A stretch of 64,000 nucleotides of DNA from Candidatus Parcubacteria bacterium (GTDB taxonomy: Bacteria > Patescibacteriota > Minisyncoccia > UBA6257 > HR35), in NCBI GenBank assembly GCA_026004495.1, contig BPJG01000001.1, positions 70,470 to 134,469 of the forward strand. Direction: 5' to 3'. The notes beneath the pieces are model-generated. The model saw nothing but the letters and a program-made list of their open reading frames with translations, was not told where the DNA came from and ran no database searches. The translations under genes were made by a program, and so were the position numbers. Positions 236 to 7,372 of the stretch are shown here, piece by piece (position 1 is the stretch's first letter; each line of letters opens with the position of its first letter).

Positions 236-1502
236 TATAAAAGTAAATAAAATTTTAGACTCAAGAGGAGAATGGACAATTGATATTGAAATTGAAAGTG
301 AAGGAATAAAAGAAAAAGCCTCAATCCCTTCTGGAAAAAGTATTGGCTCTCATGAAGTTGTTTGTTTAGATTGTGAAAAAATTAAAAAGAACTTAGATGA
401 ATTGTTGAAAGATATAAAAAATAATGATTTTCAAAATCTAAAAGAATTAGATGAATTTTTAATTAAAAGAGCAGGGAAGAATAAAGAAAAATTAGGAGGT
501 AACTTTACTTTAGGAATTTCAATTAGTTTTGCTCGCGTTTTGGCTAAAAGCAAAAATTTGGAGTTGTTTGAATATTTAAAGAACGAATATGCTCTAATAA
601 TAGAAGATGAATTTAGACAAATACCAAGATTAATTTTAAATATTATTGGTGGTGGAGTACATTCTTTTAATAATTTAGATTTTCAGGAATATTGGTTGGT
701 GACGCAGAACTACGCTGAACTGACGCAGAACTACGCAGACAATAATAAAACGCAAACCAATGCGAACTATAAGCTAAATAACGCTAAATTTCAGGTGAAC
801 TTATCCGAAGGAGAAAATTATTATGAAACGCAAAGCGATAAGAACTTAATGCGACTCAAAGCAAATAAATATGAATTTCTTATTTTTTTAATCATAGAAA
901 TCATAAATATTATTAATCAACTTGAAAATAAACTACCTAAACCATTAGGAAGAAATGATGAAGGAGCATTTTGTACAAACTTTAGTGATGATTATGAACC
1001 ATTTTTATATTTAAAAGAAGTTAATAATTTTGAACTTGGAGCTGATATTGCCGCTAATCAAATAACAAAGGTAGTTAATTGGGAAAATGTTTATCGCAAA
1101 CTAAAAATTTTGGGTGTTAAATATTTAGAAGATCCTTATAGAGAAAATGAATTTGAAAAATTTGCTGAACTTCGAAAAGAAGGATTTAAAGTAATTGGCG
1201 ATGATTTAACAGTGACCAATATTGAAAGATTAAAAATTGCCTTAGATAAAAATTCTGTTGATGGTGTAATTGTTAAACCTAATCAAATTGGCACCATAAC
1301 TGAAGCATTTAATTTTGTTAAATTAGCCAAAACAAATAATTTATTTACAATTTTTTCTCATCGAAGTGGAGAAACTAATGATAATTGGATAATTGATTTA
1401 GGAATTGCTTTTGGAGCAGATTATTTTAAAATTGGTGTTCCTTTACAAGGCGAAAGAGTGGCAAAATATAATAGACTTTTAGAGATTTATGGTAAAATTT
1501 AA
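222..1502 (+). CDS. eno: Enolase (phosphopyruvate hydratase) carrying an in-frame repeat insertion
   Basis: N-terminus KILDSRGEWTIDIEIE...IPSGKSIGSHE. C-terminus EDPY...VIGDDLTVTN...VKPNQIGTITE...SHRSGETNDNWIIDL...GERVAKYNRLLEI. The track ORF starts at 198, but the ATG at 222 gives a typical enolase N-terminus and overlaps the upstream stop. Confidence 0.92.
   Translation: MKINDIKVNKILDSRGEWTIDIEIESEGIKEKASIPSGKSIGSHEVVCLDCEKIKKNLDELLKDIKNNDFQNLKELDEFLIKRAGKNKEKLGGNFTLGISISFARVLAKSKNLELFEYLKNEYALIIEDEFRQIPRLILNIIGGGVHSFNNLDFQEYWLVTQNYAELTQNYADNNKTQTNANYKLNNAKFQVNLSEGENYYETQSDKNLMRLKANKYEFLIFLIIEIINIINQLENKLPKPLGRNDEGAFCTNFSDDYEPFLYLKEVNNFELGADIAANQITKVVNWENVYRKLKILGVKYLEDPYRENEFEKFAELRKEGFKVIGDDLTVTNIERLKIALDKNSVDGVIVKPNQIGTITEAFNFVKLAKTNNLFTIFSHRSGETNDNWIIDLGIAFGADYFKIGVPLQGERVAKYNRLLEIYGKI
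701..862 (+). repeat. GC-richer repeat-arm insertion, in frame inside eno
   Basis: The DNA reads gacgcagaactacgctgaactgacgcagaactacgcagacaataataaaacgcaaaccaatgcgaactat... and translates TQNYAELTQNYADNNKTQTNANYK.... It sits after the conserved FQE(Y/F) enolase motif, where enolases normally continue directly. It shares a 40-50 nt core with 1965-2010 and 2551-2600. Confidence 0.7.
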
Positions 1503-1552
1503 TGATTTATATTAAAATTTAATTAAGGTCGAATTAAAAAAAATTTTAAAAA

Positions 1553-1951
1553 ATGACTTCAGATTATATTCTTTTACTTTCAAGAGTGATTTTAGGTCTT
1601 TATTTTTTATTTAGTGGTTTTGCTCATTTTAAAAATTTAAATATGATGTCGCAGTATGCTCAAAGTAAAAATGTGCCAGCTCCTAAATTGGCTGTTATTG
1701 TTACAGGTCTTTTACTTTTAGTTGGTGGTCTTTCAATTTTACTTGGTGCTTATATTCAAGTCGGGGTTTTAGCTTTAACAATTTTCTTTTTACCTGTTAG
1801 TTTTATGATGCATAATTTTTGGACTGTTCAAGATCCACAAATGAAGATGATGGAAATGATTAATTTTATGAAAAATATGGCTATCTGGGCAGGAGTTTTA
1901 GCTTTACTTTTTATCCCTCAGCCTTGGCCATTCAGTCTTAGTTTGTTCTAA
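1553..1951 (+). CDS. DoxX family membrane protein
   Basis: 132 aa with four predicted TM helices. The N-terminus LLLSRVILGLYFLFSGFAHF is typical of DoxX. Confidence 0.65.
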   Translation: MTSDYILLLSRVILGLYFLFSGFAHFKNLNMMSQYAQSKNVPAPKLAVIVTGLLLLVGGLSILLGAYIQVGVLALTIFFLPVSFMMHNFWTVQDPQMKMMEMINFMKNMAIWAGVLALLFIPQPWPFSLSLF

Positions 1952-1954
1952 TTT

Positions 1955-2063
1955 ACGGTTATAGACTAACGCAGACAATATTAAAACGCAAACTAATGCA
2001 AGCTGATGCGGCTAATGAAGGTATTCGCAACGGTTCGCGTGAAAGTTCGCATAGGTTCGCGAC
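1955..2063. repeat. Intergenic copy of the repeat-arm family containing both orientations
   Basis: ctaacgcagacaatattaaaacgcaaactaatgcaagctgatgcgg is followed by four gttcgc words (ggtattcgcaacggttcgcgtgaaagttcgcataggttcgcgac). gttcgc is the reverse complement of the gcgaac word in the arms. Confidence 0.65.
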
Positions 2064-2072
2064 AAATAAAAA

Positions 2073-3941
2073 ATGAAGATATTAATTTTAGGTGGAGGAT
2101 TTGGAGGTACTTATACTTTAAAACATTTGCATAAGTTTTTTCATAATAAGAAGAAAGTAAAATTGGTATTGGTAAATAAAAAGAATTATTTTATTTTTAC
2201 GCCTTTGCTTCATGAAGTCGCTACTGGTGGAGTTTCAATCGATAATGCTTTAGAACCTATAAGAGAAATTATTAAATGTTGCGATTTTGATTTTATCCAT
2301 GGAGAAGTTGAAAAAATTGATTTAGAAAATAAAGTTGTTTATATAAATAAAGAAAGAGAAAATTATAATGTTGATTACGATTATTTAGTTATTGCTTTAG
2401 GTTCAAAAACAAATTATTATAATATTACAGGCGCTAAAGAATTTACCTTTTCTTTAAAAACAGTTGATGATGCCATAAGGCTGAAAAATAGATTTGTTCA
2501 TATGTTTGAATTAGCGAGTGTAGCGCAGACCTGCGCAGACTACACGCAGACTAACGCAGACAATATTAAGACGCAGACTGATGCGAACTACACGCAGGCT
2601 GATGCAGGCAATAATGTAGTGCAGACTAATGCAGAAAACAACGAGAATTTTCTTTATGAAGATTTAAGCTATAAAATTATAGGAATAGCTTATAAAATTA
2701 AAAAGAATTTAGGATTGGGACATAAAGAAAAAGTTTATACGAATTCCCTTGAACTTGAACTTAAAAAAGAAAATATCATTTATAAAAGAGAGGAAAAAAT
2801 CAGCGTGGTATATGATGGAAAAATAGTAGGAAACTATATACCAGATTTTGTAATAGAGGATAAAATTATTGTGGAATTAAAAACACTCCCCTTAATAGAT
2901 GAGAAGACAAAAAAGCAAATCTGGAATTATTTAAAGGGAACTAAATATAGACTTGCAATTTTGATTAATTTTGGCAAGAAAGATGTGGAAATATCTAGGA
3001 TAATTTATGATAAAGCAAGAAATTCTAATAGTCAGCAAGAGTCTGCGTCCAGTCAGAAGGTTGATAATAATGAAAGTCTGCAAAAGTCCGCGTCCAGTCT
3101 GCAAAAGTCTGAGTCTAATAAATATTTAACTTTTGTCATTGTCGGAGGTGGAGCAACTGGAGTTGAACTTGCTGGTGAAATGAGTGATTTGTTTTATAAA
3201 ACATTTAGTAAATTATATTCATCAGATTTAATTTCACAAGTTAAAATAATTCTAATCGAAAAAGGCAAAGAATTAATTCCTCAATTTTCTCCAAAATTAA
3301 GACAAAAAGCACTTGAAAGGTTAAAAAAATTAAAAGTTGATATTAGATTGGAAAGAGGAGTAATTGAAGTTGGTGAAGATTTTATTAAACTTGATGATGG
3401 TAATGTTATCGAAACAAAAACAGTTATTTGGGCAGCAGGAGTTGAAACTAATTTACCAGAAATTATTGGCAAGGTTGAAAAGGATAATAAAGGAAGATTA
3501 GTTGTAAATGAATATCTACAAGTAAAAAAGAAAATAGATATGTTAAGTCAGCAAGAATCTGCGTTAAGTCAGCAAGAGTCTGCGTACGATAATGTTTTTG
3601 CCATTGGTGATGTTTGTTGTTTTATTCAAGACCAAAAGCCTTTGCCACAATTAGCTCAAGTTGCAGTTAGACAAGTAAAAACAGTTTCTTTAAATATTAA
3701 AAATTCGATTGAAAATAAGACTTTACAAAAATTTGCTTACAAACATACTGGTGATTTAATTTCAGTTGGTAGATTTTATGCCCTAGGAGAAATTAAAGGA
3801 GTTGAATTTTCAGGTTTAATTAGTTGGTTTATTTGGAAAGGAGTTTATTTAAGCAAAATTATTTCTTTTCGAGATCAAATCAAAACATTTATTGATTGGC
3901 TTTTGAATTTATTTTTACCCAGAGATATTACTGAATTATAA
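2073..3941 (+). CDS. ndh: Type II NADH dehydrogenase (NDH-2, FAD-dependent pyridine nucleotide-disulfide oxidoreductase) with two in-frame insertions
   Basis: MKILILGGGFGGTY (first GxGxxG). FVIVGGGATGVELAGEM (second Rossmann motif). VFAIGDVC near the C-terminus. At 622 aa it is about 200 aa longer than expected because of the insertions at 2518-3120 and 3543-3584. Confidence 0.85.
   Translation: MKILILGGGFGGTYTLKHLHKFFHNKKKVKLVLVNKKNYFIFTPLLHEVATGGVSIDNALEPIREIIKCCDFDFIHGEVEKIDLENKVVYINKERENYNVDYDYLVIALGSKTNYYNITGAKEFTFSLKTVDDAIRLKNRFVHMFELASVAQTCADYTQTNADNIKTQTDANYTQADAGNNVVQTNAENNENFLYEDLSYKIIGIAYKIKKNLGLGHKEKVYTNSLELELKKENIIYKREEKISVVYDGKIVGNYIPDFVIEDKIIVELKTLPLIDEKTKKQIWNYLKGTKYRLAILINFGKKDVEISRIIYDKARNSNSQQESASSQKVDNNESLQKSASSLQKSESNKYLTFVIVGGGATGVELAGEMSDLFYKTFSKLYSSDLISQVKIILIEKGKELIPQFSPKLRQKALERLKKLKVDIRLERGVIEVGEDFIKLDDGNVIETKTVIWAAGVETNLPEIIGKVEKDNKGRLVVNEYLQVKKKIDMLSQQESALSQQESAYDNVFAIGDVCCFIQDQKPLPQLAQVAVRQVKTVSLNIKNSIENKTLQKFAYKHTGDLISVGRFYALGEIKGVEFSGLISWFIWKGVYLSKIISFRDQIKTFIDWLLNLFLPRDITEL
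2518..3120 (+). mobile_element. In-frame insertion cassette: 5' repeat arms, GxxExxY-family PD-(D/E)XK domain, then 3' inverted repeat arms
   Basis: The core is YEDLSYKIIGIAYKIKKNLGLGHKEKVYTNSLELELKKENIIYKREEKISVVYDGKIVGNYIPDFVIEDKIIVELKTLPLIDEKTKKQIWNYLKGTKYRLAILINFGKK, which is GxxExxY-like with the D...E.K nuclease motif. The 5' side carries repeated gcgcagac/acgcagac words (2521-2640). The 3' side carries gtctgcgt/gtctgca words (3030-3115), their reverse complement. The cassette lies between ...FELAS and KYLTFVIVGGG of NDH-2. Confidence 0.75.
3543..3584 (+). repeat. Solo tandem 21-nt repeat arms inserted in frame in ndh
   Basis: ttaagtcagcaagaatctgcg is followed by ttaagtcagcaagagtctgcg, translating LSQQESA LSQQESA. 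The word agtcagcaagagtctgcgt is identical to 3030-3048 in the large cassette. Confidence 0.8.
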
Positions 3942-5387: not shown

Positions 5388-5912
5388 ATGAATAAAAATT
5401 TACAAATAACTTTGGGACTTTTGCGTCTTTCATTGGGCTGGATATTTTTTTGGTCATTTTTAGATAAACTTTTTGGTTTAGGTTTTTCTACTTGCAGAAA
5501 TAGAGAAATAAATATAGTAGATTATTTTTGCCGAGATGCATGGATAAATGGTGGCTCACCAACTTTTGGCTTTTTAAAATTTGCAGTAAAGGGACCTTTT
5601 GCTGAAATTTTTAGATCAATGGCAGGTAACCCAGTTGTTGATTGGCTATTTATGTTAGGACTTTTAGGAGTTGGCTTAGGATTAATGTTAGGAATTTTTA
5701 TTAAACTTTCAACATTCTTTGGCGGATTAATGCTTGTTTTAATATATATTGCTGGCTTTATTTTGCCGGAACATAATCCATTTTTAGATGAACATTTAGT
5801 TTATACAATTTTAATGGGCTTGCTTTATCTTTCAGATTCAGGTAATTATTTAGGCTTAGGTAATTGGTGGCAAAATACAAAATTAGTTCAAAAATATAAA
5901 ATTTTAAAATAA
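5388..5912 (+). CDS. DoxX-like polytopic membrane protein
   Basis: LGLLRLSLGWIFFWSFLDKLFG followed by several TM helices. The start is 1 nt after the cysS stop. Confidence 0.5.
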   Translation: MNKNLQITLGLLRLSLGWIFFWSFLDKLFGLGFSTCRNREINIVDYFCRDAWINGGSPTFGFLKFAVKGPFAEIFRSMAGNPVVDWLFMLGLLGVGLGLMLGIFIKLSTFFGGLMLVLIYIAGFILPEHNPFLDEHLVYTILMGLLYLSDSGNYLGLGNWWQNTKLVQKYKILK

Positions 5913-6552: not shown

Positions 6553-7372
6553 ATGTCAAAGCTTAAAAAAAAGATTTTTCAAATTATTAAAAAAATTCCA
6601 TCTGGTCAATTTTTGACATATAAACAAGTTGCGATATTAGCTCATAATGAAAAAGCTTTTAGAGCGGTTGGCAATATTTTAAAATATAAGGCTAAATTAG
6701 GGAAACAATTTATAAATATTCCTTGTCATCGAGTAATTAAAGGTGATTATACTGTTGGTGGATACTTGGGTAGAAAAGATTTAAATTGGTTAAAAGCAGC
6801 TTTACTTTTAAGAGAAGGAGCAATCGGAGTTATTCCAACTGATACAATTTATGGCATTTGTACATCTGCTTTTAATAAAAAGTCTGTTGAAAAAATTTAT
6901 AAATTAAGAAAAAGAAATCCTAAAAAGCCTTGTATAATTTTGATTTCTAACTTAAACGATTTAAAGCTTTTTAAGGTTCAGCTTGAAAATTGGCAAAAAT
7001 ATATTTTAAAGAAAATTTGGCCAAGTAGAATAAGCGTCATTTTGTCTTGTAAATCGAAGAAATTTTCTTATCTTCATCGCGGAACAGAAACTTTAGCCCT
7101 TAGATTACCCAAAGATAAATTTATACTAAAAATTTTAAAAATTTCAGGACCATTAATTGCTCCATCAGCAAATTGGGAAGGGCATGAATCAGCAAAAACA
7201 ATAAATAAAGCAAAAAAAATATTTTAATAACCATGTATTTTATTTAGATAGAGGAAAACTAATTAGTGACCCCTCAAATTTAATCGATTTAACTCACAAA
7301 GAAATAAAAATCATAAGAAAGGGAGCTGATAATGATAAATTAGATAAATTTTTAAATTATAAATTAGTATAG
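6553..7372 (+). pseudogene. MGMT-like DNA-binding domain fused to TsaC/Sua5/YrdC threonylcarbamoyl-AMP synthase, interrupted by a frameshift in an A8 run
   Basis: The N-terminus has FLTYKQVA...IPCHRVI (the MGMT PCHRV motif). It continues GVIPTDTIYGICTSAFNKKSVEKIYKLRKRNPKKPCIIL (YrdC/Sua5). The ORF stops at 7227, but the next frame from 7220 continues YFNNHVFYLDRGKLISDPSNLIDLTHKEIKIIRKGADN...* to 7372, which is the expected PS.i.Dlt...ilR.G C-terminus. The shift lies in aaaaaaaa at 7212-7219. Confidence 0.7.

Follow-up and report, generated by a model that had tools for sequence, protein, structure and literature searches.

An in-frame GxxExxY nuclease cassette with inverted word arrays in the NDH-2 gene of a Parcubacteria bacterium: a probable selfish palindromic element

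The gene for type II NADH dehydrogenase (NDH-2, ndh) in the genome of a hot-spring Candidatus Parcubacteria bacterium is interrupted by an insert of about 600 bp that encodes a nuclease domain, and the open reading frame (ORF) runs through the insert without a stop codon. The locus lies in a 64,000-nucleotide stretch with a G+C content of 24.2% (hereafter the window, to which all coordinates refer) and raises the question of what the insert is and how the gene tolerates it. Our analysis indicates that it is probably one copy of a selfish palindromic element: inverted arrays of 10–11-nt words, with a GxxExxY nuclease of the PD-(D/E)XK type in the loop between them. The host gene and the three parts of the insert—the cassette—are as follows:

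2073–3941, + strand: NDH-2 gene, an ORF of 622 aa, stop-free through the insert
2520–2640, + strand: 5′ arm, tandem ACGCAGAC-type words with a spacing of 10–11 nt (21-nt double units), translated as VAQTCADYTQTNADNIKTQTDANYTQADAGNNVVQTNAENN
2641–3020, + strand: cargo, a GxxExxY/PDDEXK_3 nuclease domain, complete but lacking Met and stop codons of its own
3021–3119, + strand: 3′ arm, words (GTCTGCGT/GTCCGCGT/GTCTGCA) that are reverse-complementary to those of the 5′ arm; translation, NSNSQQESASSQKVDNNESLQKSASSLQKSESN

The host protein is an NDH-2 with a Pyr_redox_2 core, two GxGxxG dinucleotide-binding motifs (GGGFGG at residues 7–12 and GGGATG at residues 358–363) and the NDH2 C-terminal domain. 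Pfam matches to Pyr_redox_2 (7e-42) and NDH2_C (8e-9) were found in the 622-aa ORF on either side of the nuclease domain. The protein is 100% identical to NCBI protein KatS3mg094_069 of a Candidatus Parcubacteria metagenome-assembled genome, and all columns invariant among 60 NDH-2 orthologs were retained in it. In the full-length AlphaFold2 model, which had zero alignment depth inside the insert, the NDH-2 fold was predicted on both sides of the insert with a predicted local distance difference test score (pLDDT) of 90–98. The ratio of nonsynonymous to synonymous divergence (dN/dS) was 0.17 and 0.13 between the host parts and two orthologs without the insert, and 0.13 between these two orthologs. 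Thus, purifying selection still acts on the host ndh sequence as it does on the empty orthologs. The gene survives the insertion because the insert is in frame and stop-free.

The cassette (2520–3119, about 600 bp) is situated in frame between ...FELAS and KYLTFVIVGGGATGVE, in a short surface linker directly before the second Rossmann motif (GxGxxG) of NDH-2. Its ends (2520 to 3116–3119) are not placeable to the base because the insert replaces a short variable linker; the junction residues are S/VAQT and SESN/KYL, the slash marking the border of the cassette. An earlier, sequence-only reading of this locus had proposed a stop-free frame, an insertion between FELAS and the second Rossmann motif, and a complete GxxExxY domain in the middle segment. 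The first is borne out by the ORF, the second by alignment with the closest orthologs, and the third by profile searches.

In these searches, the middle segment matched PDDEXK_3 (Pfam PF13366) at residues 197–309 with 1.6e-32 and 112.8 bits against a cut-off of 22 (profile positions 2–116 of 117), and NCBIfam TIGR04256 “GxxExxY” with 2e-33 and 115.2 bits against a cut-off of 35 (profile positions 2–116 of 116). The family motif G-HK-E-KV-Y and the catalytic PDF...ELK residues were both found. Residues E30, D69, E79, and K81, like several others, were 98–100% conserved in 48 embedded copies of the domain, and these four were also invariant or nearly so across 34 free-standing copies. The window domain is therefore a bona fide member of the GxxExxY/PDDEXK_3 family, the function of which is listed as unknown (PMC3424549). 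It has the restriction-endonuclease-like alpha/beta fold, predicted to be of the Cas4/RecB type, and the best fold matches of its model were DNA nucleases—Cas4, Dna2, and RecE. AlphaFold2 gave pLDDT values of 97–99 for the domain and of about 50, with no secondary structure, for both arm-encoded segments; the domain is thus predicted to be an independently folding module, and the arms to be flexible, disordered, hydrophilic linkers. No solved structure was matched in a PDB sequence search with the domain. A tblastn search of 50,697 phage records with the domain gave no match, so a phage vector is not indicated. Between close pairs of domains, dN was 0.10–0.18 and dS was saturated; therefore, the nuclease protein is maintained.

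The arms differ from their surroundings in composition, the G+C content being 49% in the 5′ arm and 37% in the 3′ arm against 24% in the window. The 5′ arm contains no stop codon in the host frame, and two and six in the other two frames. The word ACGCAGAC, with at most one mismatch, occurs 19 times in the window against 3.9 occurrences expected; none of 100 shuffled sequences reached this number, and the largest count among them was 9. Seventeen of the 19 copies lie in 702–3585, with + strand copies located 5′ of the domain and − strand copies located 3′ of it. Inverted repeats were detected between the arms, including 2526–2561 with 3076–3111 (36 nt, 75% complementary) and further pairs. In the predicted RNA fold of 2500–3140, the arms pair with each other (−141.3 kcal/mol against −116.0 ± 5.2 for shuffled sequences, z = −4.9). 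The isolated arm–arm duplex had −69.9 kcal/mol against −33.1 for mononucleotide-shuffled controls (z = −9.2). Strand-sorted word counts and inverted repeats thus confirm the earlier suggestion that the 3′ words are the reverse complement of the 5′ words, and the predicted fold agrees with the proposal that the arms can form a long stem.

The two closest orthologs of the window ndh, L002 (88% amino acid identity) and L004 (82%, bacterium HR35), lack the cassette in the DNA alignment. Both have the identical flanks GAATTAGCGAGT and AATAAATATTTAACT, separated by 18–24 nt as against about 600 nt in the window. Among the best 120 NDH-2 homologs in a collection of 5.8 billion proteins, PF13366 was found in the window protein only; an ancestral domain at this position, an alternative raised by the sequence-only reading itself, is thereby contradicted. 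The synonymous divergence was 0.37 between the window and L002, which are sisters, and 0.50–0.52 to L004, which lies outside. A gain in the lineage of the window is the simplest history, because L002 and L004 are both empty and the window and L002 are sisters. As judged from these alignments, the cassette is shown to have entered ndh after the split from its nearest sampled relatives, which is recent on the scale of these relatives. Four further NDH-2 orthologs (P0108, P0116, P0123, and P0130) contain arms-only versions in the same linker.

The length of NDH-2 in Patescibacteria varies from 404 to 590 aa owing to low-complexity insertions at four or five loops. The variable loops are located after KFFH, in the VYV hairpin, in the FELAS linker, and before the YxNVFAIGD motif. 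Many of these insertions pair an ADxTQT-type half with a SAKSA-type half and are therefore read as arms-only palindromes.

That the same cassette might reside in other genes, a point raised in the sequence-only reading, was borne out. One genome per GTDB species was searched with a profile of the closest GxxExxY proteins, and the 80 best loci were analyzed. The domain was in frame inside a much longer ORF in 46 of the 80, including 42 of the 43 most similar. The embedded copies were distributed over the following hosts:

LepA/EF4: 19 loci, one of them (L030) at a second LepA site
RecG: 18 loci
transketolase C-terminal subunit: 2 loci
LeuRS: 2 loci, at two different sites
GatB: 1 locus
RtcB: 1 locus
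Wzy_C membrane protein: 1 locus
aconitase_C-type subunit: 1 locus, an N-terminal fusion
an ORF with two copies of the domain: 1 locus

Across GTDB genomes, no fewer than 10 host genes contain the cassette in frame, and word family, orientation, and linker peptides are the same in each. The insertion points are loops adjoining conserved motifs. In LepA, the insertion point of all copies except L030 is between VRMxY and (E)YxLNLIDTPGH, and in RecG that of all copies is between DEQHRFGVxQRxxL and (V)PHLLSMTATP. An arms-only version is present at the canonical LepA site of L030. The LepA, RecG, and LeuRS sites recur on JGI metagenome contigs. Of 1.84 billion cluster representatives searched, 8,134 belong to the family at E ≤ 1e-3. 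The best approximately 60 of the 8,134 are mostly long proteins with the domain in an internal position, and 63 long representatives contained 44 Pfam host families, including glycosyltransferases and pilins. Among the best 120 LepA homologs of one carrier, about half have the domain, and the closest (81% identical) is without it.

Some full-length LepA/EF4 proteins (P0341, P0373, P0393, and P0452) are named “GxxExxY protein” at NCBI on account of the domain inserted in them, and the record of one gives a Nanoarchaeota archaeon bin as its source. In the LepA proteins P0348, P0356, P0401, P0439, and P0451, the cassette loop holds cargo-less insertions of quite different word families (e.g., HPQFPISNFQFPNKS...LGIKDSE), so that, within the phylum, the loop is a hot spot for in-frame palindromes in general.

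In all embedded copies, the 5′ linker peptide is of the TQT/NAE/TDAD type and the 3′ linker peptide of the SASxPRxSA type; the former translates a DNA word and the latter the complement of that word. The most frequent 7-mer in the 5′ arms is ACGC[AG]GA, its reverse complement is common in the 3′ arms, and the 7-mer in the same orientation is nearly absent 3′ of the domain (at most one case). The words are spaced by 10–11 nt, two of them making 21 nt, or seven codons. Complementarity between the flanks (z down to −12.5) was likewise detected around free-standing GxxExxY genes, among them those of Omnitrophota, Bacteroidales, and Planctomycetes; the words differ there (ACAGAT, CACGGA, ACGAAT...), but they too recur about every 10 nt. 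The periodicity is therefore intrinsic to the element and does not come from coding. In a set of diverse elements, cognate arms paired with −47.8 kcal/mol against −30.7 for non-cognate ones, and the cognate arm was the best partner in 11 of 24 cases. Within Patescibacteria, the arms are nearly interchangeable (−61.5 kcal/mol for cognate and −49.8 for non-cognate arms).

There are also signs that the domain may have been exchanged between host sites. The identity of domains was 0.63 between LepA copies, 0.60 between RecG copies, and 0.58 between LepA and RecG copies, and the nearest neighbor of 11 of the 37 LepA or RecG copies resides in a different host gene. For example, identity is 77% between a LeuRS copy and a LepA copy, and likewise between a Wzy_C copy and a RecG copy.

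The closest protein relative of the window domain, P0001 (locus L001, 61% identical), is not embedded and has its own ATG and stop codon. Within the region 5600–6800 of L001, its gene is located between rbfA and the next gene, with ACGCGGAC words on its 5′ side and GTCCGCGT/GTCTGCGT words on its 3′ side. A solo reverse-word array is present upstream of rbfA (5605–5648), and an AACGAAT word family downstream (6735–6775).

These data allow the explanations of the insert other than a selfish element to be weighed. According to one of them, a GxxExxY module was co-opted by its hosts, for instance for nucleic-acid binding in RecG and LepA, and the NDH-2 copy is a by-product of domain shuffling. Long-term retention under strong purifying selection, the fully conserved catalytic residues, and the very high frequency in LepA and RecG across Patescibacteria are in line with such domestication, which we nevertheless regard as unlikely. 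The hosts are unrelated: a respiratory flavoenzyme, a tRNA synthetase, an amidotransferase, an RNA ligase, an O-antigen ligase-like membrane protein, glycosyltransferases, and pilins. Close orthologs of NDH-2 and LepA alike are without the domain, and the inverted arrays flank the gene even where it is free-standing, intergenic, and in other phyla, which points to a DNA-level element. We favor an element over a co-opted module on account of this diversity of hosts, of the alleles without the insert in close relatives, and of the arms around intergenic members; the conserved catalytic residues and the maintenance of the nuclease also speak for a selfish element.

Three further word arrays were found in the window:

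699–770, + strand: forward-only word array in frame in the enolase gene (ORF 198–1502), GACGCAGAAC TACGCTGAAC ... ACGCAAAC, translated as VTQNYAELTQNYADNNKTQTNANY
1955–2066, + strand: arms-only relative, located in the spacer that precedes the ndh start codon (2073), forward ACGCAGAC/ACGCAAAC words followed by GTTCGCG words
3537–3591, + strand: second insertion within the ndh frame, consisting of two units of 21 nt in reverse orientation (AGTCAGCAAGAGTCTGCGT); translation, MLSQQESALSQQESAY

The enolase array has no reverse-complement partner nearby, and query residue 170 is the last before a break in the alignment to solved enolases. In the spacer element, 1963–2004 is 88% identical over 42 nt to 2548–2589 of the 5′ arm, including the AT-rich spacer; a hairpin forms in the fold of 1950–2075, but its stability does not exceed that of shuffled sequences (z = 0.1). 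The unit of the second ndh insertion matches the first 21-nt unit of the 3′ arm (3030–3049, 3546–3565, and 3567–3586). This insertion, where pLDDT dips, is present in L002 and absent from L004; it predates the cassette, since L002 shares it. All arrays of the cassette word family are confined to the first 3.6 kb of the window (enolase, spacer, and ndh), and only isolated single-word matches occur in the other 60 kb; this clustering suggests local spread or local gene conversion. In L002, an extra forward-only array of four words was found at the site equivalent to position 2350, approximately, of the window.

Such arrays bear on a second explanation, in which there is no present-day mobility: the loops gain repeats by replication slippage, the nuclease was fused once or a few times long ago, and the complementarity of the arms is a by-product of repeat expansion. 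NDH-2 and LepA orthologs indeed hold many variable low-complexity insertions at the same loops, other word families included; word arrays can stand alone in one orientation, and no recent transfers were seen. However, slippage leaves unexplained the strict reverse complementarity of the 3′ and 5′ arrays, the best match of cognate arms, and the arrival of a foreign ORF of 380 nt in a linker that is empty at a dS of 0.37. The recurrence of a 42-nt arm segment with its AT-rich spacer 585 nt upstream and the frequent location of nearest-neighbor domains in different host genes also argue against this explanation, and we consider it quite unlikely.

Is the insert translated, or is it removed from the transcript? 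In 90-nt arms of 47 loci, the host frame was free of stop codons in 46 of 47 5′ arms and in 47 of 47 3′ arms, the other frames containing 1.3–2.3 stops on average. The open host frame through the arms is thus selected. In the embedded clade, the domain has neither a start nor a stop codon of its own; having no start codon, the nuclease would therefore be made only from mRNA still containing the domain, within the host polypeptide. Searches of the whole window against Rfam at gathering thresholds revealed no intron or other RNA family, and at E ≤ 1 nothing was found over 1900–3700 except one chance CRISPR-DR match. Mismatches in the arms were not enriched in G:U pairs on the sense strand (51 G:T against 93 A:C). 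Among the three fates left open by the sequence-only reading, a translated surface loop is thus favored by the stop-free host frame, the lack of a Met codon in the cargo, the disordered arms, and the location of the insertion points in loops beside conserved motifs, and RNA-level excision is disfavored by the lack of an Rfam intron and of G:U enrichment. The insert presumably stays in the mature NDH-2.

The same observations make very unlikely a third explanation, an RNA-level intervening sequence in which RNase III or the encoded nuclease cleaves the stem and the halves are rejoined, e.g., by RtcB, or used separately. It agrees with the predicted pairing of the arms (fold z = −4.9, duplex z = −9.2) and with the location of one cassette in rtcB itself, and ORF-bearing stem-loops excised by RNase III do exist in 23S rRNA (PMC4990558). 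Yet excision would make an open frame needless, and the host frame is the one that is open. The domain, lacking a Met codon and its own start, could be made only from unprocessed mRNA, and an mRNA cut in two without a ligation pathway would be destroyed. The absence of G:U enrichment in the stem mismatches, the absence of Rfam families in 1900–3700, and the DNA nucleases among the best fold matches also argue against it. That the nuclease and the stem form a protein-dependent RNA excision system acting in bacterial mRNAs is, in our estimate, highly improbable.

An assembly or binning artefact, i.e., a chimeric contig joining the ndh halves to an unrelated GxxExxY gene via repeats, can practically be dismissed despite the repetitive arms and the origin of the window in a metagenome-assembled genome, since a chimera would rarely hold the frame at both junctions, the same architecture is present in 46 independent GTDB assemblies and in further JGI contigs, and the ndh flanks are collinear with the orthologs to the base.

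Several known types of insertion were considered and rejected. An intein was rejected owing to the lack of a Hint/intein Pfam match and of the nucleophile pattern (N-terminal Cys/Ser and C-terminal His-Asn) at the junctions; translational bypass, owing to the lack of stops and of take-off/landing codons; and a group I or group II intron or curated RNA element, owing to the lack of an Rfam covariance-model match. A 23S rRNA intervening sequence was rejected because the window has no rRNA gene and the host gene codes for a protein in an open frame under selection. A Rickettsia palindromic element proper was rejected in view of the 600-bp length, the nuclease cargo, the word arrays, and the Parcubacteria genome.

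The best reading of these results is a selfish palindromic element surviving in genes as a tolerated translated loop—a Rickettsia palindromic element with cargo, or an intein without splicing. The self-contained mobile or intervening element proposed in the sequence-only reading is supported by the empty sites, the many hosts, and the arms-only relatives. In our model, the predicted nuclease would be produced solely inside the host protein, as an internal domain, and would depend on expression of the host gene. It would act on the word arrays or on the hairpin or cruciform formed by them, and not on the host-gene sequence. The break would be repaired from a cassette-bearing copy, with the generic arms or the conserved host flanks as homology, and the repair would copy the cargo into arms-only sites or empty alleles in a homing-like gene conversion. 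The arms-only arrays might then be non-autonomous partners or landing pads.

A wider proposal is made here tentatively, as possible. GxxExxY genes together with inverted word arrays may constitute an unrecognized class of autonomous mobile elements across bacteria, which in Patescibacteria may have adopted a “non-splicing intein” life style. There, the nuclease would have lost its own start codon and be made only within essential host proteins, as an internal domain; the arms would serve as DNA recognition or recombination substrate and at the same time as linker code; and the nuclease would spread by cutting hairpin or word-array sites, arms-only ones included, followed by repair copying.

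A number of points weigh against a mobile selfish element. The mobility of the cassette and the activity of the nuclease are inferred. We failed to find a relative of the window cassette more than 63% identical in 5.8 billion proteins, GTDB genomes, and JGI metagenomes; likewise, no near-identical copies at different sites were found, so no recent transfer was caught. Dating of transfer by dN/dS on close domain pairs was uninformative as to timing because dS was saturated in all of them, and the domain tree—a neighbor-joining tree of about 125 residues—is noisy. No target-site duplication is recognizable at the junctions of the window cassette, where the insert replaces a variable linker, and no transposase family was matched in Pfam/NCBIfam scans. 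The solo arrays in one orientation (699–770 and 3537–3591) are not explained by the hairpin model. The fixed positions in LepA and RecG also fit old, vertically inherited insertions with occasional gene conversion, and the strict constancy of these two sites is left unaccounted for. Finally, the purifying selection on the domain could reflect a need to fold cleanly in an essential protein, or a benefit to the host.

The cassette can be compared with several known systems. Rickettsia palindromic elements (PMC10969869) are likewise in-frame palindromic selfish DNA, translated, inserted at fold-compatible sites of unrelated housekeeping genes in a lineage with reduced genomes; the in-frame residence noted in the sequence-only reading is thus supported as a shared life style. 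Unlike the cassette, they are about 150 bp long, encode no enzyme, have no tandem 10-nt words, and are restricted to Rickettsia. The cassette holds a complete nuclease domain in its loop, and its word-array arms are shared across a phylum. Within the reading preferred here, it is a translated-through selfish insertion of the same kind, but an autonomous and nuclease-bearing one. Inteins with homing endonucleases also place a nuclease in frame in conserved proteins beside conserved motifs—those beside the cassettes being DTPGH in LepA, helicase motifs II/III in RecG, and GxGxxG in NDH-2—and are also expressed only via host translation and variably present among close relatives. In contrast to them, the cassette has no Hint or splicing domain and no junction nucleophiles, its nuclease is of the PD-(D/E)XK and not of the LAGLIDADG/HNH type, and it has inverted DNA arms. 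As with homing endonuclease genes, it occupies conserved sites of conserved genes and shows presence/absence polymorphism among close relatives. As to miniature inverted-repeat transposable elements and insertion sequences, inverted arms were seen in the cassette and no transposase family was matched; a duplication could escape recognition where a variable linker has been replaced.

RAYTs are HUH/Y1 transposases, and REPs (repetitive extragenic palindromes) are extragenic hairpins of 20–40 nt. REP/REPIN sequences with their RAYT resemble the cassette in having one enzyme gene with inverted flanking short repeats that are also scattered without the gene, and differ from it in that its enzyme is a PD-(D/E)XK nuclease and its repeats are tandem words inside genes. 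I-Ssp6803I is a very small PD-(D/E)XK homing endonuclease, free-standing within a self-splicing group I intron; the cassette resembles it in that a very small PD-(D/E)XK nuclease would likewise be the mobility enzyme of a gene-resident selfish element, and no sequence relationship was seen, none having been searched for. Known ways of sparing the host gene are RNA splicing (introns), protein splicing (inteins), rRNA processing (intervening sequences), and translation (Rickettsia palindromic elements).

The ORF-bearing intervening sequences of 23S rRNA, such as the one with S23p in Coxiella (PMC4990558) and those with 23S_rRNA_IVP in the candidate phyla radiation (PMC11270868), are similar in that inverted flanks form a long stem within an essential gene and its loop holds a small ORF whose function is not known; they are regarded as selfish. 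They are located in rRNA and removed by RNase III, whereas the cassette is located in protein-coding genes with a selected open frame. In a survey of rRNA insertions in the candidate phyla radiation, LAGLIDADG, GIY-YIG, and 23S_rRNA_IVP were listed and PDDEXK_3 was not (PMC11270868). The sequence-only reading knew of no element carrying a GxxExxY domain into protein-coding genes, and our literature searches agree: mentions of GxxExxY were incidental, and no description of these genes as the cargo of inverted arrays or as in-frame insertions was found, an absence that is no proof of novelty.

If correct, the proposed reading would make the cassette the first translated-through element with its own enzyme, linking enzyme-less palindromes of the Rickettsia type to homing-endonuclease biology, and would provide a role for the large GxxExxY/PDDEXK_3 family (8,134 cluster representatives). 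It would also account in part for the unusual variation in length and the low-complexity inserts seen in core proteins of Patescibacteria, and explain the recurrent mis-annotation of LepA. The reading makes predictions as to the DNA substrates of the nuclease and as to the peptides and transcripts to be expected, and it offers naturally validated permissive insertion sites in LepA, RecG, LeuRS, GatB, RtcB, and NDH-2.

Further variants of the domain arrangement were observed in the family. In L021 (1379–3964), one ORF of 862 aa contains two GxxExxY domains, and proteins of 250–277 aa (P0211, P0228, P0242–P0244, and others) consist of two tandem GxxExxY domains. In a group of 434–450 aa (P0253, P0262, P0270, P0298, P0309, P0316, and P0317), the domain is at the extreme N-terminus. 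Eight of the 63 long representatives carry glycosyltransferase group 1 domains according to Pfam counts, and, judged from these overall counts, the 434–450-aa group may be N-terminal fusions to such domains. The cassette in the RNA ligase gene rtcB (L041, 1409–3358) belongs to a genome with 26% G+C and has the variant word ACGGAyT; its arm peptides are YTDYNGLHTDYNGL... and ...LSEQSVLSPKKSV.

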